Assembly: GCA_964654185.1 (NCBI GenBank)
Contig: CAZZIE010000004.1
Location: forward strand, 4,994 to 68,993
Direction: 5' to 3'
DNA from: an uncultured Spirochaetaceae bacterium
Lineage (GTDB): Bacteria; Spirochaetota; Spirochaetia; DSM-27196; PWMO01
Length of the DNA: 64,000 nt
Below the pieces are notes generated by a model. The model was not told where the DNA came from and did not search any database. It saw only the letters and a list, made by a program, of their open reading frames with translations. Shown one piece after another: positions 3,215 to 23,605 of this stretch; positions within the stretch are counted from its first letter, which is position 1; each line of letters starts with the position of its first letter. The position numbers and the translations under genes were made by a program.

Positions 3215-3347
3215 GGGATACACCTCCCTCTTTGGGATCACTATAGTTTGCTCCCGCATTGAATTGCAACGAAACGGCGCTGTTGAATCCGTGCTCGACG
3301 GCAACGTATACTGCAAGAATAGAAACGTCTCCACCGGGGAGGGAGAG

Positions 3348-3800
3348 ATGAAACGAATCGTCATTCTGGCGTTGCTGCTTGCCCTGACGGCCGGCTTCGC
3401 CGTGGCACAATCGAACGAGCTCATAGATGAGCTACTAGCTACGGAGGAAGCGCCCTTCGCGGCTGCGGTGTATCTGGTCATGCTCGCCGGCGGCGAGATC
3501 GACGAGGACACCTCGGTCCAGGAGGCGTACAGTGAGTTCGACTTCTCCAACTGGAGGATCGCGGAGAAAGGAGCGGATGCTCCGGTCACCCTCGGCGAGC
3601 TCGCCTACCTCAGTATGGAGACCCTTGGCATTTCGGGCGGCATCATGTACAGCCTGATACCGTCACCGCGGTACGCCGCACGAGAGTTCAGTTATCTACG
3701 GCTCGTCCCGGGCAAGGCGTATCCGGGGCGCGTCCTCTCGGGGCGTGAAGTGGTCGACGTGATTGGCCGCGCCACGCGATACGCGGACCAGCAAGGTTGA
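3348..3800 (+). CDS. hypothetical exported protein (signal peptide)
   Basis: MKRIVILALLLALTAGFAVAQS signal peptide with GGGAGAG just upstream. It is the first gene of a tightly spaced four-gene plus-strand operon divergent from the cyclase. Confidence 0.7.
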   Translation: MKRIVILALLLALTAGFAVAQSNELIDELLATEEAPFAAAVYLVMLAGGEIDEDTSVQEAYSEFDFSNWRIAEKGADAPVTLGELAYLSMETLGISGGIMYSLIPSPRYAAREFSYLRLVPGKAYPGRVLSGREVVDVIGRATRYADQQG

Positions 3801-8782: not shown

Positions 8783-10273
8783 CTACGCGGTTTCGGCCAG
8801 CCGTTTGTTGATTGCCGCGGCCGCCTGTCTCCCCTGCCCCATGGCAAGGATCACCGTGGCTGCTCCCAGGACGATGTCGCCGCCGGCGAAGACGCCGGGG
8901 ATGGAGGTCTCGCCATTATCGTCGGTGATGATGTTTCCGCGGCGGTTCACCTTCAGTTCGGGAGTGGTTGTAACCAGGAGCGGGTTGGATTCGTTGCCGA
9001 TCGAGACGATGACCGTATCCACGTCAATGACGTTCTCGCTGTCGGGTATGGCGACGGGACGGCGGCGGCCGGAGTCGTCCGGTTCGCCGAGCTCATAGTC
9101 CAGGCACTCAATGCCGACAACGCGCTCGTCCTCATTCCCGAGAATGCGCTTCGGGCTCTTGAGGAAGTGGAAGCGGATCCCCTCCTCCTCGGCGTGATCC
9201 ACCTCTTCGGCCCGGGCGGGCATCTCCGTGCGGGTACGCCGATACACGACATTCACCTCTTCGGCGCCCAGGCGCACCGCCGTCCGGGCGGCGTCCATGG
9301 CGACATTGCCGCCGCCGAGAACCGCCACCTTCCGGGGCTGGAAGATCGGCGTGTCGGCCCTGTCACGGTCGTAGGCCTTCATCAGATTGCTCCGGGTGAG
9401 GTACTCGTTCGCCGCGAAGACACCGACGAGGTTCTCCCCGGGAATGCTCATGAACTTCGGCAGTCCCGCACCGGTGCCGATGAAGATGGCGTCGTAGCCG
9501 TCCTTCTCAACCAGATCCCGGAGCTTGCGCGTCCGGCCGACCAGAAAGTTCGTCTTGATCTCGACACCCATGGCTTCCAGGGTCTTGATCTCGTCTCCGA
9601 CGATGCGCTTGGGAAGCCGAAACTCCGGAATGCCGTAGATCATGACCCCGCCGGGCTTGTGGAACGCCTCGAAGAGGGTGACCTCGTGACCCTCCCGGCG
9701 AATGTCCGCGGCGGCGGTGATGGAAGCGGGACCGCTGCCGATCACGCCGACCTTCTTACCGGTCGCCGGCTTCACCGTCGGCGAGGCGCCGTCGGCGTGC
9801 TCTGCGCCCCAGTCAGCCACGTAGCGCTCGAGCCGCCCGATCGATACGGACTTGAAGATGTCCTTCAGCGACTTACCTACGGTGCAGTACTCCTGACACT
9901 GATTCTCCTGGGGGCACACGCGACCGCAGATCGCCGGGAGAAGACTGGTCTCCTTGATGACTGCAAGCGACTTTGCGTAGTCGCGCTCGGCTATCGCCTT
10001 AATGAATCCTGGAATGTCGATGGCAACGGGACAGCCCTTGATGCAGGGTGCATTCTTGCACTGGAGGCAGCGTTCCGCTTCGACGAGGGCCTGCTCCTCG
10101 AAGTAGCCGTAGGTTACTTCTTCCATATTGCCGCGACGCTCCCGCGGATCCTGGCTCGGCATGTCCTGCTGGGGTATCTTCAAGCGATCCTTGTTCTTCA
10201 TGGTCGCCGGGTCAATGCTCTTGAGAACGTCCTGCGCTTCCGCCTGCAACTCTTCCGCTGATCGAAAACTCAC
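8783..10273 (-). CDS. nfnB: GltD/NfnB-type NADPH-dependent FAD/[4Fe-4S] oxidoreductase. This is the large subunit of an NfnAB/SudAB-like pair, often annotated as homotetrameric glutamate synthase.
   Basis: EAERCLQCKNAPCIKGCPVAIDIPGFI...LPAICGRVCPQENQCQEYC, then two Rossmann motifs (VGVIGSGPASI, VAVLGGGNVAMDAART) and FAGGD. GTG start with GGAAGGGAG upstream. Confidence 0.8.
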   Translation of the reverse strand: MSFRSAEELQAEAQDVLKSIDPATMKNKDRLKIPQQDMPSQDPRERRGNMEEVTYGYFEEQALVEAERCLQCKNAPCIKGCPVAIDIPGFIKAIAERDYAKSLAVIKETSLLPAICGRVCPQENQCQEYCTVGKSLKDIFKSVSIGRLERYVADWGAEHADGASPTVKPATGKKVGVIGSGPASITAAADIRREGHEVTLFEAFHKPGGVMIYGIPEFRLPKRIVGDEIKTLEAMGVEIKTNFLVGRTRKLRDLVEKDGYDAIFIGTGAGLPKFMSIPGENLVGVFAANEYLTRSNLMKAYDRDRADTPIFQPRKVAVLGGGNVAMDAARTAVRLGAEEVNVVYRRTRTEMPARAEEVDHAEEEGIRFHFLKSPKRILGNEDERVVGIECLDYELGEPDDSGRRRPVAIPDSENVIDVDTVIVSIGNESNPLLVTTTPELKVNRRGNIITDDNGETSIPGVFAGGDIVLGAATVILAMGQGRQAAAAINKRLAETA

Positions 10274-10359: not shown

Positions 10360-11226
10360 CTACTTCTGGGCAGCCTGCCGCTCCTCCGCGTCTGCCACGG
10401 CGTCGAGCCTGCACGCCTTGCTGGCTTCCGTTTCCTGGTCCTTGTAGGCGGCGAGACGCCGCAACATGTTGTCGAAGTCCACGGCATGCCCGTCGAACTC
10501 CGGGCCGTCCACGCAGACGAACTTCGTCTCACCCCCGACGGTGACCCGGCATCCCCCGCACATGCCGGTACCATCGACCATGATGGTATTGAGGGATACC
10601 ACCGTATGCACCTCGTAGGGACGGGTCGTTTCGGCGGCGAACTTCATCATGATCGGCGGCCCGATTGCCACGGCGAGATCCGGGGGCGGGTCCTGCTCGC
10701 ACTGCTCCTTCAGGGGCTCGGTCACGAGGGCCTTCCGTCCGTAGGAGCCGTCGTCGGTCACCACGATGAGCTCATCCGCAATGGCGCCCATCTCCTCTTC
10801 CAGGATGACGAGCTCCTTCGTCCGCGCCCCAATGATGATGGTAACGTGATTGCCCGCCTCCTTGAGCGCCTGGGCGATCGGATGCAGCGGTGCCACACCG
10901 ATTCCGCCACCGACGCAGACGACCCGGCCGAAGTTCTCAATGTGGGTGGGCTGCCCCAGAGGTCCGAGGACGTTCGCAATGGCGTCCCCCGCCTGATACG
11001 TGGCGAGCACCCTGGTGGTCTTGCCCACCGCCTGGAAGATGAGAGTGATCGACCCCTCGTCGGGGTCCGCATCCGCAATGGTCAGAGGAATGCGTTCGCC
11101 GAAGTTGTCGTCGAGCTGCAGGATGACGAACTGCCCGGGGTGTCGCTCCCGGGAAATCTCGGGAGCGCGAATGCGCATCTTGAAGACGTTTTCCGAAAGC
11201 TGCGTTCGTTCCAGTATTTCCTTCAT
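10360..11226 (-). CDS. nfnA: NfnA/SudB-type ferredoxin-NADP-reductase-like FAD/[2Fe-2S] subunit
   Basis: Start at MKEILERTQLSENVFKMRIRAPEI (ATG at 11226). FNR-like fold motifs are present (RIPLTIAD, VCVGGGIGVAPL) with a C-terminal Cys cluster (GTGMCGGCRV...FVCVDGPEF). Confidence 0.8.
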   Translation of the reverse strand: MKEILERTQLSENVFKMRIRAPEISRERHPGQFVILQLDDNFGERIPLTIADADPDEGSITLIFQAVGKTTRVLATYQAGDAIANVLGPLGQPTHIENFGRVVCVGGGIGVAPLHPIAQALKEAGNHVTIIIGARTKELVILEEEMGAIADELIVVTDDGSYGRKALVTEPLKEQCEQDPPPDLAVAIGPPIMMKFAAETTRPYEVHTVVSLNTIMVDGTGMCGGCRVTVGGETKFVCVDGPEFDGHAVDFDNMLRRLAAYKDQETEASKACRLDAVADAEERQAAQK

Positions 11227-11364
11227 GCCGGTGTTTCCTTCATGGTACAGAGTCCTCGCACAAGCTTTGCGGCGGGGCCTCCGCGGTCCGGCGCGCATGT
11301 GCGTGCCACTGCGGTCACCCCGCACTGCTGCAGCCGACGGGACGCCTCACGCCCGCCCGTCGGC

Positions 11365-11394: not shown

Positions 11395-11517
11395 AAGAGT
11401 CCATATTGCTCTGATCATACGGCGGCAGGTCGTCCGTGTAAAGGGTCTGGTTGAAACATCCTACCTTTCCCGATCACCATTCGCGCCTTCCGGGGCTTTC
11501 CGCCCGGCCGCTGCCGA

Positions 11518-13320
11518 TCAGATTCTTCGACGCTGTGCATTCAGCCCCAGGAGCGTGGCATCAATGCCCTTGGCGGCCTGGTGGCCGTTGGCAATTGCAC
11601 TGATCGCGTCGCGCTTGGTGTTGGTAATGTCGCCACCGGCGAATACCTTAGGATCGCCGGTTGCCCCGAACTTGTCTACCGTCACCCGGCCGCGGTCGAC
11701 GGTGATCTTTGCCAGCGCCTCCTCCGGCAGGAAGGAGTAGTCCGCATCCTGGCCGATCGCCGAGATAACGGAGTCGAAGACCTCCCGGTGCTCGGAGCCC
11801 TCGATCAAGACGGGCTTCGGACGCTTCCCCTCCCCCTGGTCGACCATCTCCGCCTCGCCCCAGACGAAGGTCGCCTGGGTACTCCGGGACGCATCCTCCA
11901 CGGCAATCGGAACGGCCTGGGGAACGATCCGCACGCCCTCGTCGATGGCCTCATCGATCTCCTCCTCGTCGGCGGGCATGTCCTGGATGCGGCGCCGGTA
12001 GAGCACCGTGACCTCCGCCCCCAGGCGGCGGGCGGTCCGGGCGGCGTCCATGGCGACGTTGCCGCCGCCGATGACGGCGACCTTCTCTCCCATACCGGGA
12101 TCGCGCCCGGCGGTAACGTCGTCGAGAACCGTGATTCCCGACAGTACCCGCGGGTGGTCCTCTCCGGGAATGCCCATCTGATAGGCGTTGGGAAGACCGG
12201 TGGAGATGAAGACCGCGTCGTAGTCCCGATAGATGTCTTCGAAGGTGAGGTCGCGGCCAACCTGGAACTCCTGCTTGATCTCGACCCCGAGGGAGCGGAT
12301 GTAGTCGATGTCCTTGTTGATCTGATCGTAGGGAAGCCGGTACTCCGGGATTCCGTAACGAAGCATGCCGCCGGGGAGGTCCCGGGAGTCGTACACGGTG
12401 ATCTCGTAACCCAGGAGACGCAGATAGTAGGCGGCGCTCAGGCCGCCGGGGCCGGAGCCGACGACTGCCACGCGCTTGCCGTTGGACTCTTCCGCGCTGC
12501 CCAGGATCATCTCGTAGTCCCGGGAGTAGATCTGGTCCGCAATGTAGCGCTTGAGCCAGCGGATCGAGATGGCCTCCCCCTCGCCGTGGCGCTTTGCACA
12601 GACGCTCTCACAGGTGTGCGTACACACCCGCCCGCACGATGCCGGAAGCGGGTTGGATTCATAGACGATGCGCAGGCCTTCTCCGAGATCATCGTCGCGG
12701 ATGGCGCGAATGTAGCCGGGCACGTCCATGTGCGCCGGGCAGGTGGCAATGCAGATGCCGCAGGCGACGCAGCGGTCCGCCTCTTTCCGGGCCTGCTCCT
12801 CGGAATAGCCCTGCACGAGCTCCCGGAAGCTGGTCAGACCCTCCTCGGGAGCGAGCGTCTCCATCTTCACGCGCTCCTTCTCCAGGAGCTCGTACCCCGG
12901 GGCGCGCTCGTACCCGAGGTCGCTCTCGTCCCAGGCCTTCCGGTCCTCTCCGGGAACGTAGCGGAAGACGTCCGGGTCGATGTCGACCCAGATGTACTCG
13001 TTGCTCATGCCCAGAGAGCCGGTGGGGCAGATGTCGACGCAGAGGGCGCACCAGCAGCAGCGGCCGTAGTCCACCATGGGGCGCAGACCGCTGTCGCCGT
13101 GACGCGGCTTGTGCCGGACCGACTCCACCAGATCGATGGCCTCGTTCTGGCACACGGTCTCGCAGGTCCCGCATCCAATGCACATCTCGCCGTCGTTGGT
13201 GTGAAAGCCCCGGTACCGGGGCGCCCCGGGCCGATCATCAATGGGGTTCTTCGTCGTATAGGGCTTCTCGAAGGCGCGCTTCCACACCGAAAAGGGTGCA
13301 ATCAGGTCTTTGACACTCAT
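11518..13320 (-). CDS. fusion protein: NuoI/MbxN-like 2x[4Fe-4S] ferredoxin subunit (N-terminal, about 170 aa) joined to a GltD/NfnB-like FAD-NAD(P)H oxidoreductase (C-terminal, about 430 aa)
   Basis: N-terminal part: CIGCGTCETVCQNEAI ... CCWCALCVDICPTGSL (NuoI-type). C-terminal part: EADRCVACGICIATCPAHMDVPGYI...ASCGRVCTHTCESVC, VAVVGSGPGGLSAAYYL, VAVIGGGNVAMDAART, FAGGD. It is the last gene of the coupled operon. Confidence 0.85.
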   Translation of the reverse strand: MSVKDLIAPFSVWKRAFEKPYTTKNPIDDRPGAPRYRGFHTNDGEMCIGCGTCETVCQNEAIDLVESVRHKPRHGDSGLRPMVDYGRCCWCALCVDICPTGSLGMSNEYIWVDIDPDVFRYVPGEDRKAWDESDLGYERAPGYELLEKERVKMETLAPEEGLTSFRELVQGYSEEQARKEADRCVACGICIATCPAHMDVPGYIRAIRDDDLGEGLRIVYESNPLPASCGRVCTHTCESVCAKRHGEGEAISIRWLKRYIADQIYSRDYEMILGSAEESNGKRVAVVGSGPGGLSAAYYLRLLGYEITVYDSRDLPGGMLRYGIPEYRLPYDQINKDIDYIRSLGVEIKQEFQVGRDLTFEDIYRDYDAVFISTGLPNAYQMGIPGEDHPRVLSGITVLDDVTAGRDPGMGEKVAVIGGGNVAMDAARTARRLGAEVTVLYRRRIQDMPADEEEIDEAIDEGVRIVPQAVPIAVEDASRSTQATFVWGEAEMVDQGEGKRPKPVLIEGSEHREVFDSVISAIGQDADYSFLPEEALAKITVDRGRVTVDKFGATGDPKVFAGGDITNTKRDAISAIANGHQAAKGIDATLLGLNAQRRRI

Positions 13321-13323
13321 GAT

Positions 13324-14559
13324 CTACCTCTCGATCTCCGGCGGATAGGTGTGGAGGCTGACCATGAGCCCCGCAACGTCGGCGATATTTGTTCCCACCG
13401 CCAGCTTTTCCAGCACCACCATGGCGTGGGTGTATGAGGGGCCGCGCACATACACGCGCCGGGGGTATCCGGTACCGTCGGCAACAAGGAAGTACCCGTA
13501 TTCGCCCCGGGTACACTCCGCGCGACGGTAGGTCTGCCCGGGTGGGATCTTCCAGTGCAGGACGTTCGGCAGCCTAGTGTGAATGGCGCCCTCCGCGGGA
13601 ATGCGGTCGGCGATCTGTCTGATCAGTGAGATCGCCTGGTACATCTCCCGAAAGCGCACCCGGGCGCGGGCGTAGGCATCCGACTCTGTCTCAGTGACGA
13701 TGTCAAAGTCCAACTGATCGTAGCCGAGATACGGCGCATCCTTGCGGATGTCCCGGGCGACGCCGGCGGCTCGCGCATTCGGACCGGTAATGCCGTAGCG
13801 GTCGATCATGTCCGGGGTGATCACGCCGAGCCCCTTTGCCCGGGACTTGAAGACGGCGTTGGAGAACATGGCAAGGTCGATCTCCCCGAGGAGCTTCTCC
13901 ACTGTGGCCAGGACCGCCTCGAGACGATCCCGGAAGCCCTCCGGAAGATCCGCGCGAACTCCGCCGGGGATGATGTACATGTGGTAGATGCGGCCACCCG
14001 AGAGCTCCTCGAAGAGATCGAGGATGTAGTCGCGGTGGACCATGGTCCACTGGCCGATGGTGCCCATGCCGAAGGAGCCCGCCTGGCCGCCGATCCACTG
14101 AAGGAAGCTCGTCAGCCGCGCCATCTCCAGCGTCAGGAGGCGGATCCAGTTGGCCTTCTCCGGCACCTCGATCCCGGCGAGCTCCTCCACGGTGGCGGCG
14201 TAGAGATACTCGTTGAAATCGGGTTCCGGCACGCAGATCCGGCACACTAACGGGAAGTTCTGAATGAAGGTGCGCCGCTCCATGAGCTTCTCGAAGCCCC
14301 GGTGGAGATATCCCACGTGGGTCCGGCACTCCACGACGGTGTCTCCTTCCACGGTGAGCTCCAGGGACATGTTGCCGGTAATGCCGGGATGGTTCGGGCC
14401 CTGCCAGAGCTTGAGATACTTCCCGCTCTCGAGATCGATCCGCGGCGCGCCGGTGTCGGAGCCCTCATTCCGGTCCGGGGCGTCGAACTCGCGATAGGTC
14501 GGCTTCTCGTAGATCTCCCGGGAGTCGATGTCCCGGAACAGATGGGTGTACGTGCTCAT
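13324..14559 (-). CDS. NuoD / [NiFe]-hydrogenase large-subunit homologue lacking the C-terminal NiFe ligands (MbxL/MbsL-like)
   Basis: WQGPNHPGITG...HVGYLHRGFEKL is typical of the family. The N-terminal motif reads VCRICVPEP where RICGIC is expected. The C-terminus reads SLHTYPPEIER where DPCxxCxxR is expected. Confidence 0.85.
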   Translation of the reverse strand: MSTYTHLFRDIDSREIYEKPTYREFDAPDRNEGSDTGAPRIDLESGKYLKLWQGPNHPGITGNMSLELTVEGDTVVECRTHVGYLHRGFEKLMERRTFIQNFPLVCRICVPEPDFNEYLYAATVEELAGIEVPEKANWIRLLTLEMARLTSFLQWIGGQAGSFGMGTIGQWTMVHRDYILDLFEELSGGRIYHMYIIPGGVRADLPEGFRDRLEAVLATVEKLLGEIDLAMFSNAVFKSRAKGLGVITPDMIDRYGITGPNARAAGVARDIRKDAPYLGYDQLDFDIVTETESDAYARARVRFREMYQAISLIRQIADRIPAEGAIHTRLPNVLHWKIPPGQTYRRAECTRGEYGYFLVADGTGYPRRVYVRGPSYTHAMVVLEKLAVGTNIADVAGLMVSLHTYPPEIER

Positions 14560-15173
14560 GACGTGCTCTCCCCGTCGGTGCCGGCACCGCCCGCCTCCGG
14601 AGAGGCCGGGTGCGGTCCGTCGATCTCCGCGTAGAGGGCGCGCTTCATGTGCTCCCGGACTACGGTTTTCTTGCGCCCGGGGCGCGGGAAGTAGCGCGCC
14701 TCCGAATAGGCGCGGGTATCGAACTCCCGGCGCATGGGGGGAATGTCGTTCCAGCTCTCCAGGATGAAGGGCTCATCCACCCGGGGGCTCCCGGGGAAGT
14801 CGATGCCGAACATCTCCTTGAGCTCCCGCTGGTAGGTGCTTGCCTGCGCCCAGAGGAGGTGGATCGACTCCATCTCCGCGGCGTCCCGGGGAACCTCCAC
14901 CTCGACGCCCACGTCCCGTCGGCCGGTGTAGTCGTGGAGCAGATAGGTGAGACGAAAGGTCCCCTGCTCGATCACGTCGACCGCCGTCAGGAAGACCAGA
15001 TGGGTGAACCCCTCGACGTCGCGAAGGTGGCGGATCATGGGAACGGCGTGCGACCGGGAGATCCGGATGAACGCCTGACCGGCGTGACTGATCCGCCCGT
15101 TGTCGGTCTCGAAACGCTGAGCAAGGTCCTGGAGAAGCTCCTCAAGGGGGCGAGTGGCCGTATGCATCGTCAT
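14556..15173 (-). CDS. NuoC/MbxK-like 30-kDa subunit
   Basis: HLVFLTAVD...YQRELKEMFGIDFPG pattern. The start overlaps neighbouring genes by 4 nt. Confidence 0.8.
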   Translation of the reverse strand: MTMHTATRPLEELLQDLAQRFETDNGRISHAGQAFIRISRSHAVPMIRHLRDVEGFTHLVFLTAVDVIEQGTFRLTYLLHDYTGRRDVGVEVEVPRDAAEMESIHLLWAQASTYQRELKEMFGIDFPGSPRVDEPFILESWNDIPPMRREFDTRAYSEARYFPRPGRKKTVVREHMKRALYAEIDGPHPASPEAGGAGTDGESTS

Positions 15174-15191
15174 AAATGATCTCCTCCGGCC

Positions 15192-15962
15192 CTACCAGTT
15201 GTAGTCCGGCATGTTCCAGTCGGTGATGACCCTCTTCTGATTCGCCTTGTACCAGTCGAAGTTCTCGGCGTAGTAGTTGGCCCCTTCGGCTTCGCCGGCG
15301 CGGATCAGTTGCTTCAGCTTCTGGAATCCCGCGAGGATGGCTTCAGGGCGCGGCATGCAGCCGGCGACGTAGACATCCACGGGGATGTAGTGATCGAGGC
15401 GGTTGATGGTGTTGTAGCTGTCCCAGTACATGCCGCCGTTGATGGTGCAGCTCCCGAGGCCGATCACGAACTTCGGGTTCTGCATCTGCTCGTAGCTCCG
15501 GACGATACGCTTGAGGGTCTTCAGGGAGACGTAACCCCCAATGATGAAGACGCTCGACTGCCGCGGCGTGGGGCGTCCCTGAATGCCGTAGCGGTAGGCG
15601 TCGAACCGGGCGGTCATGAGGGGACGGAGCTCGATTGCGCCGCAGCCGGTGCCGAAGCCGAGGATCCAGAGGCTCTGGGAGCGGGCCCAGTTGAGGAATT
15701 TCTCAATGATGCCGCGGAAGGGGGCGACCGCCTCGGGGCGGGCGTCACAGAAGCAGGCACGGTCCTGGATCGGCATGTCGAGGTTGGGAAGGCGCACGCC
15801 GTCTCCCGTGATGGGCAGGGTGCGCTTCTCTTCCGGGTCCGACGCGGCGCTTGTGTCCGGGGCCGTTGCCCGCGCCGCTGCCGTGCCCGGCGCGCCGCCC
15901 GGCGCATTGGCCGACGCGTTGGCCGCCGCCTCCGCAGAGGTGCCGTCTGTGTGGTCGCTCAT
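15192..15962 (-). CDS. NuoB/MbxJ-like [4Fe-4S] subunit with an Ala/Pro-rich N-terminal extension of about 60 aa
   Basis: SLWILGFGTGCGAIE, VIGLGSCTINGG and VAGCMPRPE. Only one Cys sits where complex I has CC. The ATG at 15962 overlaps the TGA of the upstream gene (ATGA), which supports the long form. Confidence 0.8.
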   Translation of the reverse strand: MSDHTDGTSAEAAANASANAPGGAPGTAAARATAPDTSAASDPEEKRTLPITGDGVRLPNLDMPIQDRACFCDARPEAVAPFRGIIEKFLNWARSQSLWILGFGTGCGAIELRPLMTARFDAYRYGIQGRPTPRQSSVFIIGGYVSLKTLKRIVRSYEQMQNPKFVIGLGSCTINGGMYWDSYNTINRLDHYIPVDVYVAGCMPRPEAILAGFQKLKQLIRAGEAEGANYYAENFDWYKANQKRVITDWNMPDYNW

Positions 15963-16885
15963 GCAACGCTCCTTATGATCTGCAGCGCGACGGCGATAAC
16001 GCCGATCGCTGCGGGGATCTTCAAGAAGAAGGTGATCGAATCCTGAACGCGGAAGCGTGGGAAGGAGACTCCCACGAAAACCGTGAACAGATAGATGAGA
16101 AAGGTCTTGATGACCATGGCAAAGATGTTGGTCGCTCCACCGAAGAAGAGGTTCATGTAGAGGATCAGCTTTGCGCCGTTGAAGATGGCGCGGTTGGACT
16201 GGAGCATGCCCATGTAGGAGCCCTGATACTCCGTCGGCGGGCCCATGGGGATCTCCTGCGGTGCGGTGACGACACTGAAGGGGTTACCCATGGTCATACC
16301 CAGGAAGGCGACCATTCCGGCAATGGTGGCCAGAGGATTGGCAAAGAGGTTCCAGCTGAGAATCCCTCCCTGCTGGACCGCGACGATTTCGGTTATCGAC
16401 AGGGTGTTGTGCTGGATTGCCAGGGACACGATCGCCAGGGTGAAGGGCACCTCGAAGGCGGTCATCTGCGCAAGGCCCCGGGCAACGCCGATGGCGCTGT
16501 ACGGGTGCCCGCCCTCACCGGCTCCGAGGGCCATGCCGAGCTGGCCGAAGAAGATGAAGTACACCACCAGGAGCAGGTCGCCGGCGAAGTGGAAGTTCCC
16601 GAACACCGTGGAGCCGAAGATGACGGGAATAAACATGAGCGTGCCGATGCCGCCGGCGAGGCGGAAGACCGGCCCCAGATAGAACATGATCCCGTGGCTT
16701 ATGGTTGTCCGCTTGGCGTTGTTCTTGATGATGTCGATGTACGGCTGCCACACGGGGATGCCGATCCGACCTTGGACCCGGGCGCGGATGCGGGCGGTGG
16801 TTCCCATGAGAAGAATCCCGTAGTTGAAGACCACGAAGAGGGTAATGGCGGCGTACAGGACGTGGAGCAAGATCGGCTCGGTCAT
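15959..16885 (-). CDS. NuoH/HycD/MbxM-like membrane subunit
   Basis: A polytopic membrane protein with RIRARVQGRIGIPVWQPYIDIIK at the N-terminus, which is the NuoH/HycD signature region. Confidence 0.8.
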   Translation of the reverse strand: MTEPILLHVLYAAITLFVVFNYGILLMGTTARIRARVQGRIGIPVWQPYIDIIKNNAKRTTISHGIMFYLGPVFRLAGGIGTLMFIPVIFGSTVFGNFHFAGDLLLVVYFIFFGQLGMALGAGEGGHPYSAIGVARGLAQMTAFEVPFTLAIVSLAIQHNTLSITEIVAVQQGGILSWNLFANPLATIAGMVAFLGMTMGNPFSVVTAPQEIPMGPPTEYQGSYMGMLQSNRAIFNGAKLILYMNLFFGGATNIFAMVIKTFLIYLFTVFVGVSFPRFRVQDSITFFLKIPAAIGVIAVALQIIRSVA

Positions 16886-19800
16886 GAGAGACCTCCTGCA
16901 ATGACGTAGAGAGCGACAACAAAGAGGAGAATGTGGAGCGCGTAGGTCTGGCCGTTGCCGGAGTAGATGCGCCGCATGGCGGAGCCCGCGGCGTTCACCC
17001 CGTCACGGACCCCCGCCCAGAAGGCGATCACGCCGGGTCGTGAGAGAAAGCCCAACGCCTTGTCGTAGTGGGCGAAGAAGTGATGGGCGAAGTGGGTGGT
17101 TTCCGGGCGATCCGGGCGCTCCGCAGCGTAGACAATGTTGAACTGTCCGACCGCCTGGGGACGGCGCATGACGACCATGAGCCACACGAGGGGCACAATG
17201 AACACCACCATGGTGACGTACATGACCAGGTTGCCGTTCCAGTATCCCAGCGTCGAAAGCACCGTGTAGCGCTCCATGACCGTAGCCGTACCGAGGTAGG
17301 CGCCGGTGGTCGAGAGGAGTGGCTGCACGAGCAGATTCGGATACATGGAGACGCCCATGAGCCCCCCGGCCAGAAGCAACTGCGGCAGGATGAGCCAGAA
17401 GGGCGCCTCCCGCACCTCGCGATGCGTGTCCTTCAGCTGTCCCAGAAAGATCGTGTGGATGAACTTGAAGAGGTAGAGAAACGCAATGGTGCTGGCAAAG
17501 AAGGCAAGGGCCGCCTGGAAGTACCACCCGCGCTCGAGCAGCGCGGTGTAGAGCATCCATTTGCCGCCGAACCCTGCCAGGGGCGGAACCCCCGACACCG
17601 CAATGATGGCCATGAGCGACGATATGAAAGTCAGGGGCATCTTCTTGATGAGCCCGCCGAGCTCGTGCATCCGGCTCGTTCCGGTCCTGAAGATGACTCC
17701 GGCCACGGCCAGGAAGAGCATTCCCTTGAAGATCAGGTGGAGCACCGAGAGATAGAGCCCCGTGGTCCATCCGAGCTGACTCGCCATGGCGACGGCCATG
17801 ATGATGTAGCCGAGCTGGCTCATGGAGGAGTACGCCAGGAGATACTTCACATCGCTCTGGTACACCGCGAGGAGCGCACCGAAGAGGGCCGTGAGTGCGC
17901 CGATCCAGCCGACGATTGCCAGCAAGAGATCCGCAGCGCCGGCGGTCGTAACGAGGAGCATGCCGACAACCAGGAGTCCCGCAACGGGCACCTTGCTCAG
18001 AATGCCGGAGAAAACCGGAGACAGGTCGTCCTCCGCCTCGGCGTAGGCGCCGGGAAGCCAGATCTGCACCCCGACGGCACCGGCTTTGACCAGAAATCCC
18101 GCAACAATGAGGATGAGCGCGGCCAGCGAGGCGCCGGCACTCACGCCCCCGGCCGCGCCGGTGCCGGCGTTGAGGGCCCCGGCGGTCGCGCCGGACAACG
18201 CGGAAACCGCGAGCCCCGCCACGGCCGGTCCCAGCAGAGCCGCTGCATCCGGAGCCAGGGTCGCGGAGACGACGTGGGGAAAGCCGAAGGCGACGCCGGT
18301 GAGCCCCAGGTAGACCAGCCCCACCATGAGAAGGAACGCCCCGCCGACGGAGAAGACAAGATAGCGAAGGGCCGCCCGGGCGGCGCCGTGTCGCCTCAAC
18401 AAGAGAAGGTAGGACGCCAGCGTAACCGACTCGAAGGCGAGAAAGAATCCCGCCGAGCTCTCGGCGGCAAGGAGGGAAACCATGCTCAAGGTGAGTGCGG
18501 CAACCAGGGGAAAGAGCCCCGTTGCGCGCTTCCTCCGGTTCAGCAGCGCAAGAGTGGCAATCACGCCGCCTCCCGCGAAGATTCCCAGAAAAACAACCCC
18601 CATGCCTTCGAGCATCGGATAGACCACCCAGCCGAACCCGGCAATCGCCGCCACGGTGAGCAGGGCCTTCACCCGGGCCGGCAACCAGTCGAGAACCCAC
18701 AACGCCACAGCCGCGGCAAAGGGCACGAAGAGGAGCACCTCCCGGAAGCCGAACAGCCAGGCCGACAGAGGGCCCAGGACGAGCAGGATCACCGCAAACA
18801 CCCCGGGAGGATCGTCGGCCACGCCGGTCCGGGTCGCGCCGGTGCGGGCCTCGCCGGTGCGGGCCTCGCCGGTCCGTACCGGTGCGGCCGCCGCGGCGGC
18901 GTGGGCAGTCGCCGTGACACCGCGGGCACCCGCCGCAGGCAGCGCGTCGTCAGCGGCCGCCGCGGATCGCGCCCTCTCGTCCGCGACGGGTTCACCAGCG
19001 TCCTCCCCGAGCACCTGCGGAGTCAGCGCCGCCCCGAGAAAGCGGAAGAGATACGTCGCCTCGAGGAGGGAGCCCAGGAGGATCACGACGATCCAGAGAA
19101 CTGAGCCCGCCCCGGCAAGCTGAGTAATGAGCGTCCACTTTGCCCAGAATGCCGGAAAGGGAGGAAGGCCTGCGAGGGCGATTACGAAGAGTCCCGCGGC
19201 AATCAGCAGACCGCGGCGAACTCGTGACCCGTCACCGCCACGGCGCAGCCGGCTTGCCAGACCGGCCAATCCCTCGAAGCCCAGGGAGGAGGCGATCCAG
19301 AAGAGGCCGCCCTTTGCCAGGAGATGATTCACCAGGAGACCGCCGCCTACCAGAAGGGACGTGCCGACGCTCCAGTCCTGCAGATGTGCCAGCGAGACTG
19401 TCGCCACGACCAGACCGAGTTGCGCCACCGAGGAGTATCCGAGCATTCGCCGGACCTGACGCTGCCGGAGTCCCATCAGGTTGGAAAGACCGAATGTCAG
19501 TACACCGACACCAACGAGGACACTCAGCTGTGGGCCAGGAATCATCGGCACAATCTTGTAGAGGGCAGCAACAATGCCGCCGGAGGTGCCCACGGAGATG
19601 ATTGATGCAACTGCCGGCTCGGAGGCTTCATATACATCGAGCGCCCATCCGTTCGCCGGGAAGGGCTTCAGCTCAATCAACAGCGCAGCGACCACCAGGA
19701 ACACGGCGACGAATCCCGCGCCGCCGGTAAGAACCTCGCTCCCCTGGGCCGTCAGGATCATGCCGTCAATGTTCAGGGTTCCGGTCACGCGATAGAGGTA

Positions 19801-20331
19801 GATCGTGCCAATCAGAAACAGTGCCGATGCCAGACCTCCCGCTATGACATACTTGAAGCCCGCACTGAGACCGCGTTGATCGTCGTGCAGGGCAATCATG
19901 CCGTACGTGGCAATGGCGGTGATCTCCAGGAACACGAACACGTTGAAGAGGTCCCGGGTGAGGATCAATCCGTTGGTCCCCATGGCCATCATGAGCAAGA
20001 GGATCTGCGCGCCCAGATGACCGTGAAGGAATCGCCTCGTGAGAAGAACGCCCGATCCGAGGAAGGCCAGATTCACTGCAAGGGCGAGCCCGGCCTCGAG
20101 GGTCCCCATGCGCAGGTTGATCGAAAAGGGCGGCGCAAACCCCGCCGTCAGCACCTCCGGAGCGGCCGCGCCGCCCAGGAGCGCAACGAGCCACGCACCG
20201 GAGAGCCCGACCATCCAGGCAAGGGTTCCAAGGGTCAGCCCGAGGGAGAGACCCCGGCCGAGCCGGTCGGCAAGTCCGAGAAGAAATGCAACCAGGAGCG
20301 CGATTGCCGGCAGAAAGATCGGGCTTACCAT
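16882..20331 (-). CDS. fused double NuoN/MrpD-type antiporter-like subunit (MbxH'-MbxH equivalents in one 1149-aa polypeptide)
   Basis: Two complete Proton_antipo_M-like modules (about residues 1-450 and 520-1149) are joined by an Ala/Arg/Thr/Gly low-complexity linker (...RTGEARTGEARTGATRTG...). Confidence 0.8.
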   Translation of the reverse strand: MVSPIFLPAIALLVAFLLGLADRLGRGLSLGLTLGTLAWMVGLSGAWLVALLGGAAAPEVLTAGFAPPFSINLRMGTLEAGLALAVNLAFLGSGVLLTRRFLHGHLGAQILLLMMAMGTNGLILTRDLFNVFVFLEITAIATYGMIALHDDQRGLSAGFKYVIAGGLASALFLIGTIYLYRVTGTLNIDGMILTAQGSEVLTGGAGFVAVFLVVAALLIELKPFPANGWALDVYEASEPAVASIISVGTSGGIVAALYKIVPMIPGPQLSVLVGVGVLTFGLSNLMGLRQRQVRRMLGYSSVAQLGLVVATVSLAHLQDWSVGTSLLVGGGLLVNHLLAKGGLFWIASSLGFEGLAGLASRLRRGGDGSRVRRGLLIAAGLFVIALAGLPPFPAFWAKWTLITQLAGAGSVLWIVVILLGSLLEATYLFRFLGAALTPQVLGEDAGEPVADERARSAAAADDALPAAGARGVTATAHAAAAAAPVRTGEARTGEARTGATRTGVADDPPGVFAVILLVLGPLSAWLFGFREVLLFVPFAAAVALWVLDWLPARVKALLTVAAIAGFGWVVYPMLEGMGVVFLGIFAGGGVIATLALLNRRKRATGLFPLVAALTLSMVSLLAAESSAGFFLAFESVTLASYLLLLRRHGAARAALRYLVFSVGGAFLLMVGLVYLGLTGVAFGFPHVVSATLAPDAAALLGPAVAGLAVSALSGATAGALNAGTGAAGGVSAGASLAALILIVAGFLVKAGAVGVQIWLPGAYAEAEDDLSPVFSGILSKVPVAGLLVVGMLLVTTAGAADLLLAIVGWIGALTALFGALLAVYQSDVKYLLAYSSMSQLGYIIMAVAMASQLGWTTGLYLSVLHLIFKGMLFLAVAGVIFRTGTSRMHELGGLIKKMPLTFISSLMAIIAVSGVPPLAGFGGKWMLYTALLERGWYFQAALAFFASTIAFLYLFKFIHTIFLGQLKDTHREVREAPFWLILPQLLLAGGLMGVSMYPNLLVQPLLSTTGAYLGTATVMERYTVLSTLGYWNGNLVMYVTMVVFIVPLVWLMVVMRRPQAVGQFNIVYAAERPDRPETTHFAHHFFAHYDKALGFLSRPGVIAFWAGVRDGVNAAGSAMRRIYSGNGQTYALHILLFVVALYVIAGGLS
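18823..18882. repeat. 15-bp tandem repeat (about 4 degenerate copies) encoding the inter-module linker
   Basis: GCCGGTGCGGGCCTC at 18838-18852 and 18853-18867, with degenerate copies on both sides. It encodes (RTGEA)n on the minus strand. Confidence 0.8.
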
Positions 20332-20750
20332 TTCAGCTCCTTGAAGTCGTCGATCTGGAGCGATCCCCGGCGATCGTGCAGCTGCACGGCGTAGACGAGC
20401 ATGAGGGCGGTGACAGCCAGCCCGATTACAATGGCGGTGAGCACCAGCGCCGACGGCACAGGATCAACCACCTGGGCGGCGGCCCCCTGAGCGGCGGTGG
20501 CCTGCGCGGCGCCGGCCTGAGCGGCGGCGGCCTGCGCGGCGCCCCGGCCGGCGGTGCCGAGGACGGCAACGGCTTCGTCCAGAATCGGGGCGGTGCGCCC
20601 GCGGATGTAGCCGATCGACACCATGACGAGGTGGATCCCGGTGTCGACGATCGAGAAGCCAATGATCATCTTCACGATGTTGCGCTGCGTGAGCATGCCC
20701 CACAGTCCAATGAGAATCAGCAGAAAGCCGAAGGCGGATACGATGGTCAT
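20325..20750 (-). CDS. MrpC/NuoK/MbxG-like small membrane subunit with a low-complexity loop insertion
   Basis: FGFLLILIGLWGMLTQRNIVKMIIGFSIVDTGIHL is MnhC/NuoK-like. It carries an inserted AAQAAAAQAGAAQATAAQGAAAQ stretch. Confidence 0.75.
   Translation of the reverse strand: MTIVSAFGFLLILIGLWGMLTQRNIVKMIIGFSIVDTGIHLVMVSIGYIRGRTAPILDEAVAVLGTAGRGAAQAAAAQAGAAQATAAQGAAAQVVDPVPSALVLTAIVIGLAVTALMLVYAVQLHDRRGSLQIDDFKELKW
20486..20545. repeat. 30-bp tandem duplication inside the MrpC-like gene
   Basis: CCTGAGCGGCGG(T/C)GGCCTGCGCGGCGCC at 20486-20513 and 20516-20543. Confidence 0.8.
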
Positions 20751-21598
20751 GGCGCCTCCCGATTGGGTTCGTGGGTATGCGCGGCTGCGGGATTTGCCCT
20801 CATACGGTCGAGAATGCCGGTGAGCTCCGCCCCGACTTTGAGACCGACCAGCGAGTAGATCACGGGAATTGCGCCGGCACTCAGGAGCATCCCGTATCGA
20901 CCGGGCGGCAACAGCCGTGCATCCAGAAAACCTGCAGCCAGCACGATGCCGAGAATGCCGATTATCACGTAGGCTCCGCCGGACATCGACTCGATGAAGG
21001 TCAGTATCCCGTGGCCGATGCGAGCGCGGCTCGCCGAGAGGAAGTGCAGGAGCGCCGCCGCGGCAACAAGGACTCCTCCCTGGAATCCTCCGCCCGGAGT
21101 CAGGTGGCCGTGAAGGAATATGTACACACCGAAGACGAGCACCAGGGGCATGAGAATCCGCGCCCCGCTGGTGAGAATCTCCGATGGCTCGGATCGCGAG
21201 GCGCTTTCGCGGTCCAGTCCCGACCCGACCTCGTCTCCGGGGAGTCCGTGCAGGGGCCGCCCGCGACCCGGGGCAATTGACCGCTCCGGGGAAGCGGGCC
21301 CCGGCACGGCGCCGGTGAGCGGTCCGTGAGCATCGGGCCCAAAGCTGCGGCGCAACAGGAACCCGATCCCCGCGGTAGCGATGAAGAGAACCGCAACTTC
21401 CCCGAGTGTATCGAGTCCCCGATACGTGACTACCACCGCGGTGACGACGTTCTGGGCTCCGAGCTCATCCGGCGTGCGAGTTACGTAGCCCTCGGCAACG
21501 CGGGAGAGCTCGGCAGTCGGCGGCACGTCCCGGAGGAGCGGAAAGAGCAGCACTGCCACACCGGCGACCGCGACGATGGCAAACAATCTGGCGATCAT
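20747..21598 (-). CDS. MnhB/MrpB-family membrane subunit (MbxF-like, with a MbhE-like N-terminal part)
   Basis: NVVTAVVVTYRGLDTLGEVAVLF and FLHGHLTPGGGFQGG are MnhB-family signatures. They are separated by a Pro/Gly/Ser-rich insertion. Confidence 0.75.
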   Translation of the reverse strand: MIARLFAIVAVAGVAVLLFPLLRDVPPTAELSRVAEGYVTRTPDELGAQNVVTAVVVTYRGLDTLGEVAVLFIATAGIGFLLRRSFGPDAHGPLTGAVPGPASPERSIAPGRGRPLHGLPGDEVGSGLDRESASRSEPSEILTSGARILMPLVLVFGVYIFLHGHLTPGGGFQGGVLVAAAALLHFLSASRARIGHGILTFIESMSGGAYVIIGILGIVLAAGFLDARLLPPGRYGMLLSAGAIPVIYSLVGLKVGAELTGILDRMRANPAAAHTHEPNREAP

Positions 21599-21930
21599 GA
21601 GTCGGTGCCCTCCCCTGCTGGACCGTCGGTTCCCGTGGCGGTTTCAGTGGCGGCCCCGGTGGCGCGTCCAGCCTCGGCGCCGTGTCCGCCGCTGCGGGTC
21701 AGCCGGATTCGGTTCAGCGCCAGGAGGAAGACCACCGTGGTCAGAGCTGAGCCTATGGCGGCCTCCGTCATGGCGACGTCCGGTGCTGCCAGCACCAGAA
21801 AGACAATGCTCGCCAGAAGACTGACAACCCCTGCGGAGATGATCGCTGCCACCAGACTCTTCTGATACAGCGCAAATACCGCAGAGATCACCATGACGAT
21901 TCCCAGCACGATCAGTAATGCATCGATCAT
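21595..21930 (-). CDS. MbhD/DUF4040-like small membrane subunit (MrpA C-terminal-like)
   Basis: Three TM helices (...AAPDVAMTEAAIGSALTTVVFLLAL...) plus a Gly/Ala/Thr-rich tail. The 4-nt overlaps on both sides place it in the operon. Confidence 0.6.
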   Translation of the reverse strand: MIDALLIVLGIVMVISAVFALYQKSLVAAIISAGVVSLLASIVFLVLAAPDVAMTEAAIGSALTTVVFLLALNRIRLTRSGGHGAEAGRATGAATETATGTDGPAGEGTDS

Positions 21931-22340
21931 GGCGACTCCTTTCTGGACCCGCCGGCGCTCGGCCCGGCCACGCTCGACGTGCCCCCGGCGCTCGGGGCGG
22001 CGTCGGCGTCAGCGTCAGCGCCGCTGCCCGCCAGGTCGTCCTGTACCGTTTGCGACGCGAGCGGGATGCCCGCCGCGTGAGCCGCCCGTATGAGGGCGTG
22101 CGAAGATATCGGATTGGTGAATACAATGAACACGATCAGCAGGGCCAGGCGCGGAAGCCAGCTCGGAAAGGCAATACCGACGCCCGCGAGGAACAGGATG
22201 GACCCGAGCGTCGTTGCCTTGGTGCCCGCCTGCATGCGGTTGTACACGTCCGGCATGCGAACAAGACCGAGGGCAGCCAGCAGCAGGAAGATCGCCCCTG
22301 CAATGCTCACCAGACCTCCGATTACGCCAAGAAGATCCAT
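21927..22340 (-). CDS. MnhG/MrpG-like subunit (MbxC-like)
   Basis: Start at MDLLGVIGGLVSIAGAIFLLLAALGLVRMPDVYNRMQAGTKATTLG (MnhG signature). The ATG at 22340 abuts the stop of the upstream gene (22342-22344). Confidence 0.8.
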   Translation of the reverse strand: MDLLGVIGGLVSIAGAIFLLLAALGLVRMPDVYNRMQAGTKATTLGSILFLAGVGIAFPSWLPRLALLIVFIVFTNPISSHALIRAAHAAGIPLASQTVQDDLAGSGADADADAAPSAGGTSSVAGPSAGGSRKESP

Positions 22341-22341
22341 G

Positions 22342-22602
22342 CTAGAGCCCCCTTTCCAGGTAGCGGGCAACCGCCACAACGCCGAGGAAACTGACGAGCC
22401 CGTAGACCAGGGCGACATCAATGTAGATTACTCGCCCGCTCACCACCGCAATGAAGGCAATGATCGATATGGAGATGATGGTCATTCCATCCAGACCGAC
22501 GGTGCGGTCCGCAGCGGATGGACCCGCCAGCACTCGCGCAAACGCCAGGACGGCGGCCACGACGGCAATGCCCCCGGCAACCCAGAACAGGGTCTCAACC
22601 AC
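22342..22602 (-). CDS. MnhF/MrpF-like subunit (MbxB-like)
   Basis: 86 aa with three TM helices (RVLAGPSAADRTVGLDGMTII...ARYLERG), which is the MrpF pattern. Confidence 0.75.
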   Translation of the reverse strand: MVETLFWVAGGIAVVAAVLAFARVLAGPSAADRTVGLDGMTIISISIIAFIAVVSGRVIYIDVALVYGLVSFLGVVAVARYLERGL

Positions 22603-23092
22603 AGATCACCTCCAGGTAGCGTTCGAACTTCTCGACAATGCGTTGCGTGGTTGCCTCGATATCGTCGCCTTCAACATTGATCCAGTGGATGTAGAGGATT
22701 TCGCCCCGGCTCTCAACGGTTATGGTCCCCGGTGTCAGCGTGATGGAGTTGGCAAGAATCAGCCGTCCCAGACGACTCTTGAGTCTGGTGCGGACCCTGA
22801 CGATACCTGGACGAATCGGAAGCTGCGGGGCAAGCACCCGGAACGCCACGTCGAGATTGGCGCGGATCAGCTCGCCGAAGAAGACAAAGGCGTAGGCGAT
22901 CGCGAACAGGACGGATCTCGGGGAAATGCGAAAATCACCGAGCACTTCCGCCGCCCCCAGGGGCAACAGCATAACCAGCAGCGTGACAATGCCGGCGGCT
23001 CCCAACTCCTGAAGGTTCAGCGGGTACGCAAGGGCGGACCACACGACCATCAGGAGCAGGGCCAACAACACTCTTCCTCGCACGAGTGTCAC
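22595..23092 (-). CDS. MnhE/MrpE-like subunit (MbxA-like), first gene of the operon
   Basis: ANLDVAFRVL...ANSITLTPGTITV...LYIHWINV is the MnhE pattern. The preferred start is GTG at 23092 (GGGGAG 5 nt upstream). The track start at 23131 has no RBS. Confidence 0.75.
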   Translation of the reverse strand: MTLVRGRVLLALLLMVVWSALAYPLNLQELGAAGIVTLLVMLLPLGAAEVLGDFRISPRSVLFAIAYAFVFFGELIRANLDVAFRVLAPQLPIRPGIVRVRTRLKSRLGRLILANSITLTPGTITVESRGEILYIHWINVEGDDIEATTQRIVEKFERYLEVICG

Positions 23093-23179
23093 AGGCGCTC
23101 CCCATACCCGTCTGCAACTCGGTCGGCACACTCAAGGGTCAGGCGACGAAACGCACAGGCCGGCCGCTTCGATGGGCAC

Positions 23180-23298: not shown

Positions 23299-23604
23299 TC
23301 ATACTCCGTCGGATCGCAGCAGGGACGACCAGACCTCGCCATCGAAGCCGAAGTAGAGCTCCCCGTCGATCTCCAGCACTGGGTAGATCGGTTTGGCACC
23401 GTACGCAATCTCGAAGTCTTCCTGGATCTGATGCCGCCTTTCCGCGGGTAATCGATCGAGGAGAATCGCCTGGACCGAGAGCCCTTCCCTGGTCAGGAAC
23501 TCTCTGGCGCGGCCACAGTGCGAGCAGAACGAAAGCCCGTACACGTATGCGTTGGACACAACGTGTTCGCCGGGCAACTGGACATAGGGGACATCCGGGT
23601 ACAC
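23299..23604 (-). CDS. glutaredoxin/NrdH-like thioredoxin-fold protein (CSHC motif)
   Basis: VYGLSFCSHCGRAREFL...PVLEIDGELYFGF. GTG start at 23604 with AGGAGGG 4 nt upstream. The gene directly abuts the stop (23606) of the upstream gene. Confidence 0.7.
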   Translation of the reverse strand: MYPDVPYVQLPGEHVVSNAYVYGLSFCSHCGRAREFLTREGLSVQAILLDRLPAERRHQIQEDFEIAYGAKPIYPVLEIDGELYFGFDGEVWSSLLRSDGV

Positions 23605-23605
23605 T

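Follow-up and report, generated by a model that had tools for sequence, protein, structure and literature searches.

A stretch of 64,000 nucleotides from an uncultured Spirochaetaceae bacterium (assembly GCA_964654185.1, contig CAZZIE010000004.1), referred to below as the window, carries on its minus strand a 12-gene operon, from 23131 to 11518, in the order MrpE, MrpF, MrpG, MbhD, MnhB/MbhE, NuoK-like, a fused MbsH-MbsH', M, J, K, L and N. Its product is predicted to be an ion-translocating respiratory complex of the membrane-bound sulfane reductase (MBS) type, Mrp-derived and complex-I-like, which would reduce sulfane sulfur and would be fed by NAD(P)H, a reading that is held with a confidence slightly short of even. 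The best solved-structure matches of L, J, N and the fused HH' subunit are all chains of 6U8Y, the MBS of Pyrococcus furiosus, and homology to MBS was observed together with the architecture of the complex, its motifs and the conservation of these motifs. The clade to which the operon belongs represents a widespread bacterial relative of the archaeal MBS, with a spirochaete copy in the window and a predicted role in sulfur reduction. This clade is already known from genomes as "Mbx-like" or MBX, with gltD, and the window operon is a clear member of it; bacterial Mbx-like operons with a gltD-type subunit and vestigial cysteines in the NuoD homologue were reported by Degli Esposti in 2015 (PMC4758237), and a putative MBX has been cited for Thermotoga (PMC9431562) and Endoriftia (PMC11636981), with its function and direction in Endoriftia listed as unknown in the latter paper. 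A literature search for a fused MbxN returned nothing relevant, and the complex goes unmentioned in a 2026 paper on Cloacimonadota metabolism. The initial annotation had quoted motifs of two subunits, all of which are found in minus-strand open reading frames (ORFs) at 13324-15962, and had missed the 12-gene Mrp/MBS-type operon with its fused MbsH-MbsH'. The two subunits and the residues on which the reading depends are as follows.

15192-15962, minus strand: NuoB/MbsJ-like subunit J, with the proximal [4Fe-4S] cluster (256 aa; Pfam Oxidored_q6; 6u8y_J, 2e-65)
15651-15653, minus strand: J G104, at the position of MbsJ C25 (alignment and translation)
15642-15644, 15447-15449 and 15357-15359, minus strand: conserved J cysteines C107, C172 and C202, respectively (checked by translation)
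13324-14559, minus strand: NuoD/MbsL-like subunit L without NiFe site (411 aa; Pfam Complex1_49kDa; 6u8y_L, 6e-97)
14233-14235, minus strand: L C109, equivalent to MbsL C85 and to the first NiFe cysteine (alignment)
13345-13347 and 13336-13338, minus strand: L Y405 and E408, replacing the C-terminal NiFe cysteines, with Y405 at the position of MbsL C385 (alignment)

The J subunit contains GFGTGCGAIELRP, GLGSCTINGG and AGCMPRPE, and its residues 85-248 align with 6u8y_J over 164 residues with no gap (E 2e-65). In this alignment C107, C172 and C202 fall on MbsJ C28, C93 and C123, and G104 falls on MbsJ C25. The proximal cluster of MbsJ is held by C28, C93 and C123 only, with C25 too distant to ligate it, while the MBS mutants C25A and C85A/C385A stay active and the open Fe is the proposed catalytic site (PMC7684303). 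The residue equivalences to MbsJ and MbsL are secure, because counting along the alignments reproduces the numbers of that paper (C25, C28, C93 and C123; C85 and C385). At sequence level, J carries the ligand pattern expected for the three-cysteine proximal cluster of MBS, and the window is read as the MBS signature in minimal form, with cysteine at the three ligand positions, Gly at C25 and Tyr at C385. The initial annotation was thus right that only three cysteines remain for the proximal cluster, and its statement on a site-differentiated cluster in MBS agrees with the published work (PMC7684303). For the comparison with hydrogenases and complex I, E. coli HycG/HycE and NuoB/NuoCD served as stand-ins for the MbhJ, MbhL and Nqo6 sequences, and in a MAFFT alignment with NuoB and HycG the GTGCG of J faces GLSCC in NuoB and CGGCNGC in HycG, the first cysteine of the complex-I tandem pair being kept in the window (C107) and the second being Gly (G108). 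The AlphaFold2 model of J, of moderate confidence (pLDDT 66, with residues 1-57 and 173-184 below 50), has its best fold match in 6u8y_J, with a target-normalised TM-score of 0.79.

Relatives of L were sought in one genome per species and were detected in at least 576 species, of which the best 80 loci were studied, with motifs counted over 82 loci for L and 73-74 for J. The best 80 matches belong to Spirochaetia, Cloacimonadota, sulfur-oxidising Gammaproteobacteria (Thiodiazotropha, Thiogranum, Chromatiaceae, Thiotrichales and Arenicellales), Magnetococcales and Bacteroidales, and the nearest relative among the matches listed is an uncultured Spirochaetaceae metagenome-assembled genome (MAG) with 96% L identity. 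The motifs are conserved over about 80 genomes of at least four phyla, and the gene order, including the fusion of N with a GltD-like domain described below, is the same in all loci of sufficient length. The J loop reads GTGCGA[IV]E in 72 of 73 loci, the exception being GTGCCSIE in one Arenicellales MAG; GCMPRPE is present in all 74 J sequences, and the motif of the middle cysteine matches the regular expression in 65 of 74, the others showing variants such as CSCAINGG, with both cysteines kept throughout. Owing to this conservation in related loci, the motif pattern is not a product of chance. CC is found in 119 of the 150 best 50%-identity representatives of J/NuoB homologues, CxxC in 5 and a single cysteine in only 6.

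The N::GltD fusion recurs in more distant MBS-type lineages (Thermotogota, WOR-3 and a Chitinispirillia-like group), where H and H' are encoded separately. The position of MbsJ C25 is Cys in Thermotogota, Val in WOR-3, Cys in the Chitinispirillia-like group and Gly in the window, and the three ligand cysteines are invariant. In L, position 109 is Cys in 54 and Ala in 28 of the 82 loci, and position 405 is Tyr in 78 and Cys in 4, as expected for vestiges. Positions that P. furiosus can do without vary among natural sequences, whereas the three ligands stay fixed, which is the strongest comparative support for the three-cysteine reading. These are modest new points: exactly three ligating cysteines are kept clade-wide and the vestigial cysteines vary as mutagenesis predicts; further, an invariant cysteine is present in L where J-C25 is lost, and H and H' are fused in this sub-clade.

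The L subunit contains FPLVCRICVPEPD and its C-terminus reads ...MVSLHTYPPEIER; it matches 6u8y_L at 6e-97, Nqo4 at 4e-64, MbhL at 5e-38 and HycE at 3e-29. Its residues were placed by a MAFFT alignment with E. coli HycE and NuoCD and by a HMMER alignment to Thermus thermophilus Nqo4, counted residue by residue. In the MAFFT alignment, the first NiFe cysteine position is occupied by C109, the second by E112, the third by Y405 and the fourth by E408, and G62 stands at the position of the hydrogenase Glu. The claims that both C-terminal Ni-binding cysteines are replaced, by Tyr and Glu, and that only the first N-terminal one is kept were therefore borne out, and where group 4 [NiFe] hydrogenases have RxCGxCxxxH and DPCxxCxxR/H, L reads CRICVPEP and HTYPPEIER. 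As had been proposed, L cannot hold a canonical NiFe site, for it has lost all but one of the four ligands, and Ala takes the place of this last one in 28 of 82 relatives. The quinone site was compared with Nqo4, as the initial annotation had suggested, and its His and Tyr are absent, with T61 at H38 and V110 at Y87 in agreement between the two alignments. The lack of a NiFe site, of the hydrogenase Glu and of the quinone His/Tyr is in all respects as in MBS, and C109 is the sole remnant of the NiFe cysteines. As far as the definition quoted in PMC6349859 goes, the window complex also has the features of an energy-converting hydrogenase-related (Ehr) complex, being group-4-hydrogenase-like, devoid of Ni/Fe-coordinating residues and equipped with antiporter-like subunits.

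These residues bear on two other kinds of chemistry. Descent from group 4 [NiFe] hydrogenases would speak for a cryptic hydrogenase with a non-canonical metal site, which is barely conceivable, given that three of four NiFe cysteines and the catalytic Glu are missing, that the remaining cysteine varies as stated, and that hyp maturation genes were not found in a Pfam scan covering all but a few short ORFs of the window up to ~6 kb from its end; it was rejected on motif grounds from the J and L alignments. An NAD(P)H:quinone oxidoreductase, that is, a reduced form of complex I equipped with another input module for NAD(P)H, would be in keeping with the quinones that gammaproteobacterial hosts are generally known to have and with the complex-I-like layout of flavin input, Fe-S chain and a J/L/M chamber whose opening in MBS is as wide as in complex I (PMC7684303). 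It is nevertheless very unlikely, since Thr and Val take the place of the quinone His and Tyr, 72 of 73 loci lack the tandem CC of cluster N2, the bit scores are much closer to MBS than to Nqo4/Nqo6 (328 vs 220 for L; 224 vs 112 for J), and many hosts are fermentative spirochaetes and Cloacimonadota; it too was rejected on the motifs of J and L. The current annotation in genome-based metabolic models, "NADH-quinone oxidoreductase subunits B/D", is probably wrong.

The electron input of the complex is encoded by the last gene of the operon, which is followed by two genes of a separate flavoprotein.

11518-13320, minus strand: MbsN (2x[4Fe-4S]) fused to an NfnB/GltD-like domain (Pfam Fer4_7, Fer4_20 and Pyr_redox_2)
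10360-11325, minus strand: NfnA, small subunit of NADH-dependent ferredoxin:NADP+ oxidoreductase (5jca_S, 1e-96; 4ylf_A, 2e-88)
8783-10273, minus strand: NfnB, large subunit of the same enzyme (4ylf_B, 4e-156; 5jca_L, 2e-147)

Residues 7-131 of N::GltD match 6u8y_N (2e-23) and residues 149-592 match Thermotoga maritima NfnB (4ylf_B, 4e-83), and the motifs of the fused domain are intact, comprising those for two further [4Fe-4S] clusters, the FAD motif GSGPGG and the NAD(P)H motif GGGNVA followed by YRRR. The free, ferredoxin-oxidising MbsN of MBS is accordingly lacking in the window, where an NfnB/GltD-like flavoprotein domain of 450 residues is attached to N, and NAD(P)H is therefore the likely electron source, rather than this being a plain ferredoxin-dependent MBS. 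The fusion corresponds to the Mbx-like trait whereby a GltD-like NAD(P)-binding flavoprotein is part of the NuoI homologue or stands in its place, and it is present in all related loci extending far enough, as well as in Thermotogota, WOR-3 and other lineages. The preference of the initial annotation for MBS-type chemistry over H2 evolution or quinone reduction is thus supported by homology and by the absence of NiFe and quinone sites, but it was incomplete as to the electron donor, N::GltD, and as to the Mbx-like clade, which had already been described.

The two genes directly downstream of N::GltD are, by their homology, a bona fide adjacent NfnAB pair, for which bifurcating activity is predicted; the likely true start of NfnA is the Met at residue 34, at about 11226. 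For the fused domain, a role as a simple NAD(P)H dehydrogenase module is more probable than a bifurcating one, because most genomes have no NfnA partner for it, NfnAB being present downstream in only 4 of 80 related loci, all from spirochaetes. The gap between operon and NfnAB spans 190-290 bp with one promoter-like match, and NfnAB may have its own promoter. The match is a sigma-70-like hexamer pair, TTTACA-17-TATGAT (11414-11442, minus strand), in the gap between N::GltD and nfnA, a single match and no more than is obtained in shuffled sequence.

A different direction of electron flow has been assigned to such operons, in which the classical Mbx would be a ferredoxin:NAD(P)+ oxidoreductase, passing electrons from ferredoxin through the N clusters and the fused flavin to NAD(P)+ with Rnf-like ion coupling, while the J/L pocket would be a vestige or a conformational sensor. 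This role was proposed in earlier literature for Mbx-like operons with a gltD-type subunit (PMC4758237; Mesotoga preprint), which itself weighs against the sulfane-sulfur reading, and it is in line with the co-expression with the ferredoxin-dependent reductive tricarboxylic acid cycle in Endoriftia (PMC11636981), with the universal presence of the fused NAD(P)-binding domain in the clade and with the NfnAB pair adjoining the operon in the window. It is considered fairly unlikely. A path from ferredoxin to N to flavin bypasses the J/L/M coupling pocket and leaves this conserved pocket unexplained, and the strong conservation of the three J ligand cysteines and of the pocket loops is not what a vestige would be expected to show; all characterised members of the superfamily known to us couple through chemistry at the J/L/M pocket. 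For the P. furiosus prototype, moreover, the assigned function has been changed from this one to polysulfide reduction (PMC7684303).

Two further, clade-specific cysteines, one in L and one in the N-terminal extension of J, require separate consideration.

14242-14244, minus strand: L C106, directly before R107 (invariant in the clade)
15747-15749, minus strand: J C72, in the N-terminal extension (F-C-D..P motif)

The J extension comprises ~80 residues (15725-15962) and is absent from archaeal MbsJ; its residues 1-57 are rich in Ala, Gly and Pro and predicted to be disordered, and a conserved motif, D-R-x-x-F-C-D-x-R-P...P-[FY]-[RK]-G, follows after residue 57. The L cysteine stands before R107, the counterpart of the N2-contacting Arg in complex I. 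Across about seven MBS-type lineages, the L cysteine is present in every lineage without J-C25, and the lineages retaining J-C25 have Leu, Pro or Cys at this position. These cysteines raise the alternative that the proximal cluster is an ordinary four-coordinate electron-transfer cluster, with L-C106 or J-C72 as its fourth ligand, and that catalysis takes place at a thiol or disulfide as in ferredoxin:thioredoxin reductase (FTR) or heterodisulfide reductase (Hdr). The invariance of L-C106 in 82 of 82 loci directly before R107, its presence in each of the lineages that lack J-C25 and the good conservation of the F-C-D..P motif of the J extension argue for it; the Thermococcales and Thermotogota, which are without the L cysteine and yet have the same J fold and loop length, argue against it, and J-C72 does not serve as a ligand throughout the clade, since 18 of 73 loci have Ser or Ala there. 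The alternative as a whole is judged unlikely. J-C72 was rejected as a general fourth ligand, the Ser and Ala variants being found mainly in Gammaproteobacteria. A spare thiol near the open Fe may matter in vivo.

Under the sulfane-sulfur reading, NAD(P)H would be oxidised at the flavin of the fused NfnB/GltD-like domain, and the electrons would pass by two GltD-type clusters and two N clusters to the J cluster. This cluster, one Fe of which would have no cysteine ligand, would reductively cleave the S-S bond of polysulfide or of another sulfane or persulfide, as in MBS, within the hydrophobic J/L/M chamber, and the sulfur chemistry would drive H+/Na+ translocation through HH' and the Mrp modules. 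NADPH for the complex would be produced, in this lineage, by the adjacent NfnAB from the reduced ferredoxin and NADH of fermentation. We infer the substrate and the direction of operation, with homology as the sole ground for the sulfane-sulfur chemistry. The enzyme may be reversible, since the redox potentials of NAD(P)H and polysulfide are close. Indirect support for the sulfur mechanism is provided by T. maritima mbxA, which is induced 4.4-fold by S0 (PMC9431562).

Several other points weigh against this reading. The bacterial members are known from genomes and transcripts alone, so that substrate, direction and nucleotide specificity are all deduced. A step from NAD(P)H to polysulfide releases little energy for driving two or three pump modules. 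The hosts of the clade comprise anaerobic-digester Cloacimonadota and aerobic or microaerobic sulfur oxidisers, for which a single common substrate is not obvious. L-C106, invariant in all L loci and adjoining the cluster-contacting R107, could make the J cluster four-coordinate or shift catalysis to a thiol. Locus L048, the Arenicellales MAG mentioned above (J gene ~8784-9383), with its complex-I-like CC in the loop GTGCCSIE, represents a natural four-cysteine variant within the three-cysteine clade.

A combination of these elements is also conceivable, in which the enzyme of the clade may work reversibly as an NAD(P)H:sulfane-sulfur oxidoreductase coupled to an ion gradient, whose three-cysteine cluster together with L-C106 would act on persulfides and polysulfides in an FTR- or Hdr-like manner, forward in spirochaetes and backward in Gammaproteobacteria, a proposal that is regarded as decidedly unlikely. 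If it were true, the forward mode in fermentative spirochaetes would be an NADPH-driven sulfur respiration fed by NfnAB, and the backward mode in Gammaproteobacteria that store or oxidise sulfur (Thiodiazotropha, Endoriftia and Chromatiaceae) would use the ion gradient to raise the electrons of sulfide or polysulfide (about -270 mV) to the level of NAD(P)+, which would constitute a previously unrecognised, cheap route of reverse electron flow for autotrophy.

To our knowledge, MBS is the only enzyme for which direct S-S cleavage has been shown for an Fe-S cluster having an open iron, and it has been described only in hyperthermophilic archaea. If the sulfane-sulfur reading holds, cluster-catalysed sulfur respiration would be widespread in mesophilic bacteria and would draw on the pyridine-nucleotide pool instead of ferredoxin; among the hosts of the clade are spirochaetes of free-living habit, Cloacimonadota from digesters and the sulfur-oxidising symbionts that live in lucinid clams and tubeworms.

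The remaining genes of the operon encode the membrane arm, the membrane anchor of the peripheral arm and the K subunit.

22595-23131, minus strand: MrpE/MnhE-like membrane subunit (MbsA equivalent), first gene of the operon (Pfam MNHE, 2e-36; position kept in all long related loci)
22342-22602, minus strand: MrpF-like subunit (MbsB equivalent; Pfam MrpF_PhaF, 2e-17)
21927-22421, minus strand: MrpG-like subunit (MbsC equivalent; Pfam PhaG_MnhG_YufB, 3e-25)
21595-21930, minus strand: MbhD-like subunit (MbsD equivalent; Pfam MbhD, 1e-19)
20747-21598, minus strand: MbhE/MnhB-like subunit (MbsE equivalent; Pfam MnhB, 4e-19, and MbhE, 4e-11)
20325-20750, minus strand: NuoK/MnhC-like subunit (MbsG equivalent; Pfam Oxidored_q2, 3e-23)
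16882-20331, minus strand: fusion of MbsH and MbsH', two antiporter-like pump subunits (1149 aa; Pfam Proton_antipo_M in two stretches)
15959-16885, minus strand: NuoH/MbsM-like membrane anchor of the peripheral arm (Pfam NADHdh, 1e-44)
14556-15173, minus strand: NuoC/MbsK-like subunit (Pfam Complex1_30kDa, 3e-23)

The operon is thus of the Mrp type of MBS (A-G, H, H', M, J, K, L and N), with H and H' fused here, and it encodes a peripheral arm J-K-L-N, seated on the M anchor, together with a complete membrane arm of Mrp-like type that contains two pump modules. The C-terminal half of HH' (residues 518-1144) matches 6u8y_X, the MbsH' chain, at 1e-53, and a match to 6u8y_H, the MbsH chain, was obtained at 3e-45. 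Cloacimonadota operons have a DUF302 gene between K and L (locus L001, 3679-4164; locus L002, 3938-4423). A glutaredoxin-like ORF with a CSHC motif (23299-23676, minus strand) lies immediately upstream of the first gene of the window operon and has a weak counterpart in one related locus, L006.

Downstream of N::GltD, a rubrerythrin-like gene in the same orientation was observed in 24 of 80 related loci (for example L062, 12185-12694; L085, 11476-11973) and is absent from the window, which has NfnAB there; a rubrerythrin at the end of the operon is a frequent but not a defining Mbx-like feature, and such a neighbour would fit an oxidant-labile open cluster. An ArsR-type regulator recurs in 12 of 80 loci and is likewise absent from the window. 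Over the related loci, no recurring neighbours that would name the substrate, such as rhodanese, TusA, NSR or Psr, were found, and only the rubrerythrin-like and ArsR-type genes recur. In the window, genes of sulfur metabolism or of quinones were not detected among the Pfam-scanned ORFs, which cover the stretch up to ~57.6 kb apart from several short ones. Elsewhere in the window, an ORF of 1117 aa (34132-37485, minus strand) combines a NuoE-like [2Fe-2S] domain, a NuoF-like FMN and 4Fe-4S domain and a GltD/NfnB-like domain (Fer4_20 and Pyr_redox_2), and it may be a one-polypeptide NAD(P)H-linked module of the bifurcating type; three genes at 44927-48442 (plus strand) encode an enzyme of the xanthine dehydrogenase/aldehyde oxidase family with molybdenum-cofactor-binding, [2Fe-2S] and FAD subunits, and a similar Mo subunit is also encoded near the Thermotogota operon in L085; a large CHASE2-domain adenylate/guanylate cyclase is encoded at 503-3589 (minus strand).

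Compared with the P. furiosus MBS, the window complex has the same Mrp-type gene order and two antiporter-like pump modules, three ligating cysteines in J with the same loop length (identity 56% for J and 44% for L), and an L without functional NiFe site or quinone His/Tyr. It differs in that MbsN is free and ferredoxin-oxidising in P. furiosus whereas N is fused to the NfnB/GltD-like domain in the window, in that H and H' are fused, MbsJ C25 is replaced by Gly and MbsL C385 by Tyr, in that L has a new invariant cysteine before the Arg and J an extension of ~80 residues, and in that the host is bacterial and probably mesophilic. With the bacterial Mbx-like complexes of Thermotoga maritima, Mesotoga, Magnetococcus and Endoriftia, which are known only from genomes and transcripts, it shares a gltD-type flavoprotein in place of a plain NuoI and vestigial NuoD cysteines (C109 in the window), and the Thermotogota locus L085 has the same gene content. 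In the Thermotogota, however, the CTGC pair persists in J, L retains its C-terminal cysteine and shows Pro in front of the Arg, H and H' are separate, and the operon is followed by rubrerythrin rather than NfnAB.

With group 4 [NiFe] hydrogenases (membrane-bound hydrogenase, MBH, 6CFW; E. coli Hyc, 7Z0S), the complex shares the common ancestry of J, K, L, M and N, with Mrp modules as in MBH, and it differs from them in lacking the NiFe ligands, in the shorter J loop without CxxC(xxC) and in having two pump modules instead of one. The resemblance to complex I/NDH-1 (Nqo4/Nqo6, NuoCD/NuoB) lies in the fold, in a J loop of the same length as in NuoB, in the Arg and His kept near the proximal cluster and in an NAD(P)H flavin input that feeds an Fe-S chain, whereas the window has a single cysteine in place of the tandem CC, no quinone His/Tyr, another input module and an Mrp-type membrane arm that is attached on the opposite side, as in MBS. 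Lastly, with respect to NfnAB (T. maritima, 4YLF; P. furiosus NfnI, 5JCA), the two downstream genes are close homologues (2e-88 to 4e-156), and the domain fused to N is itself NfnB-like.

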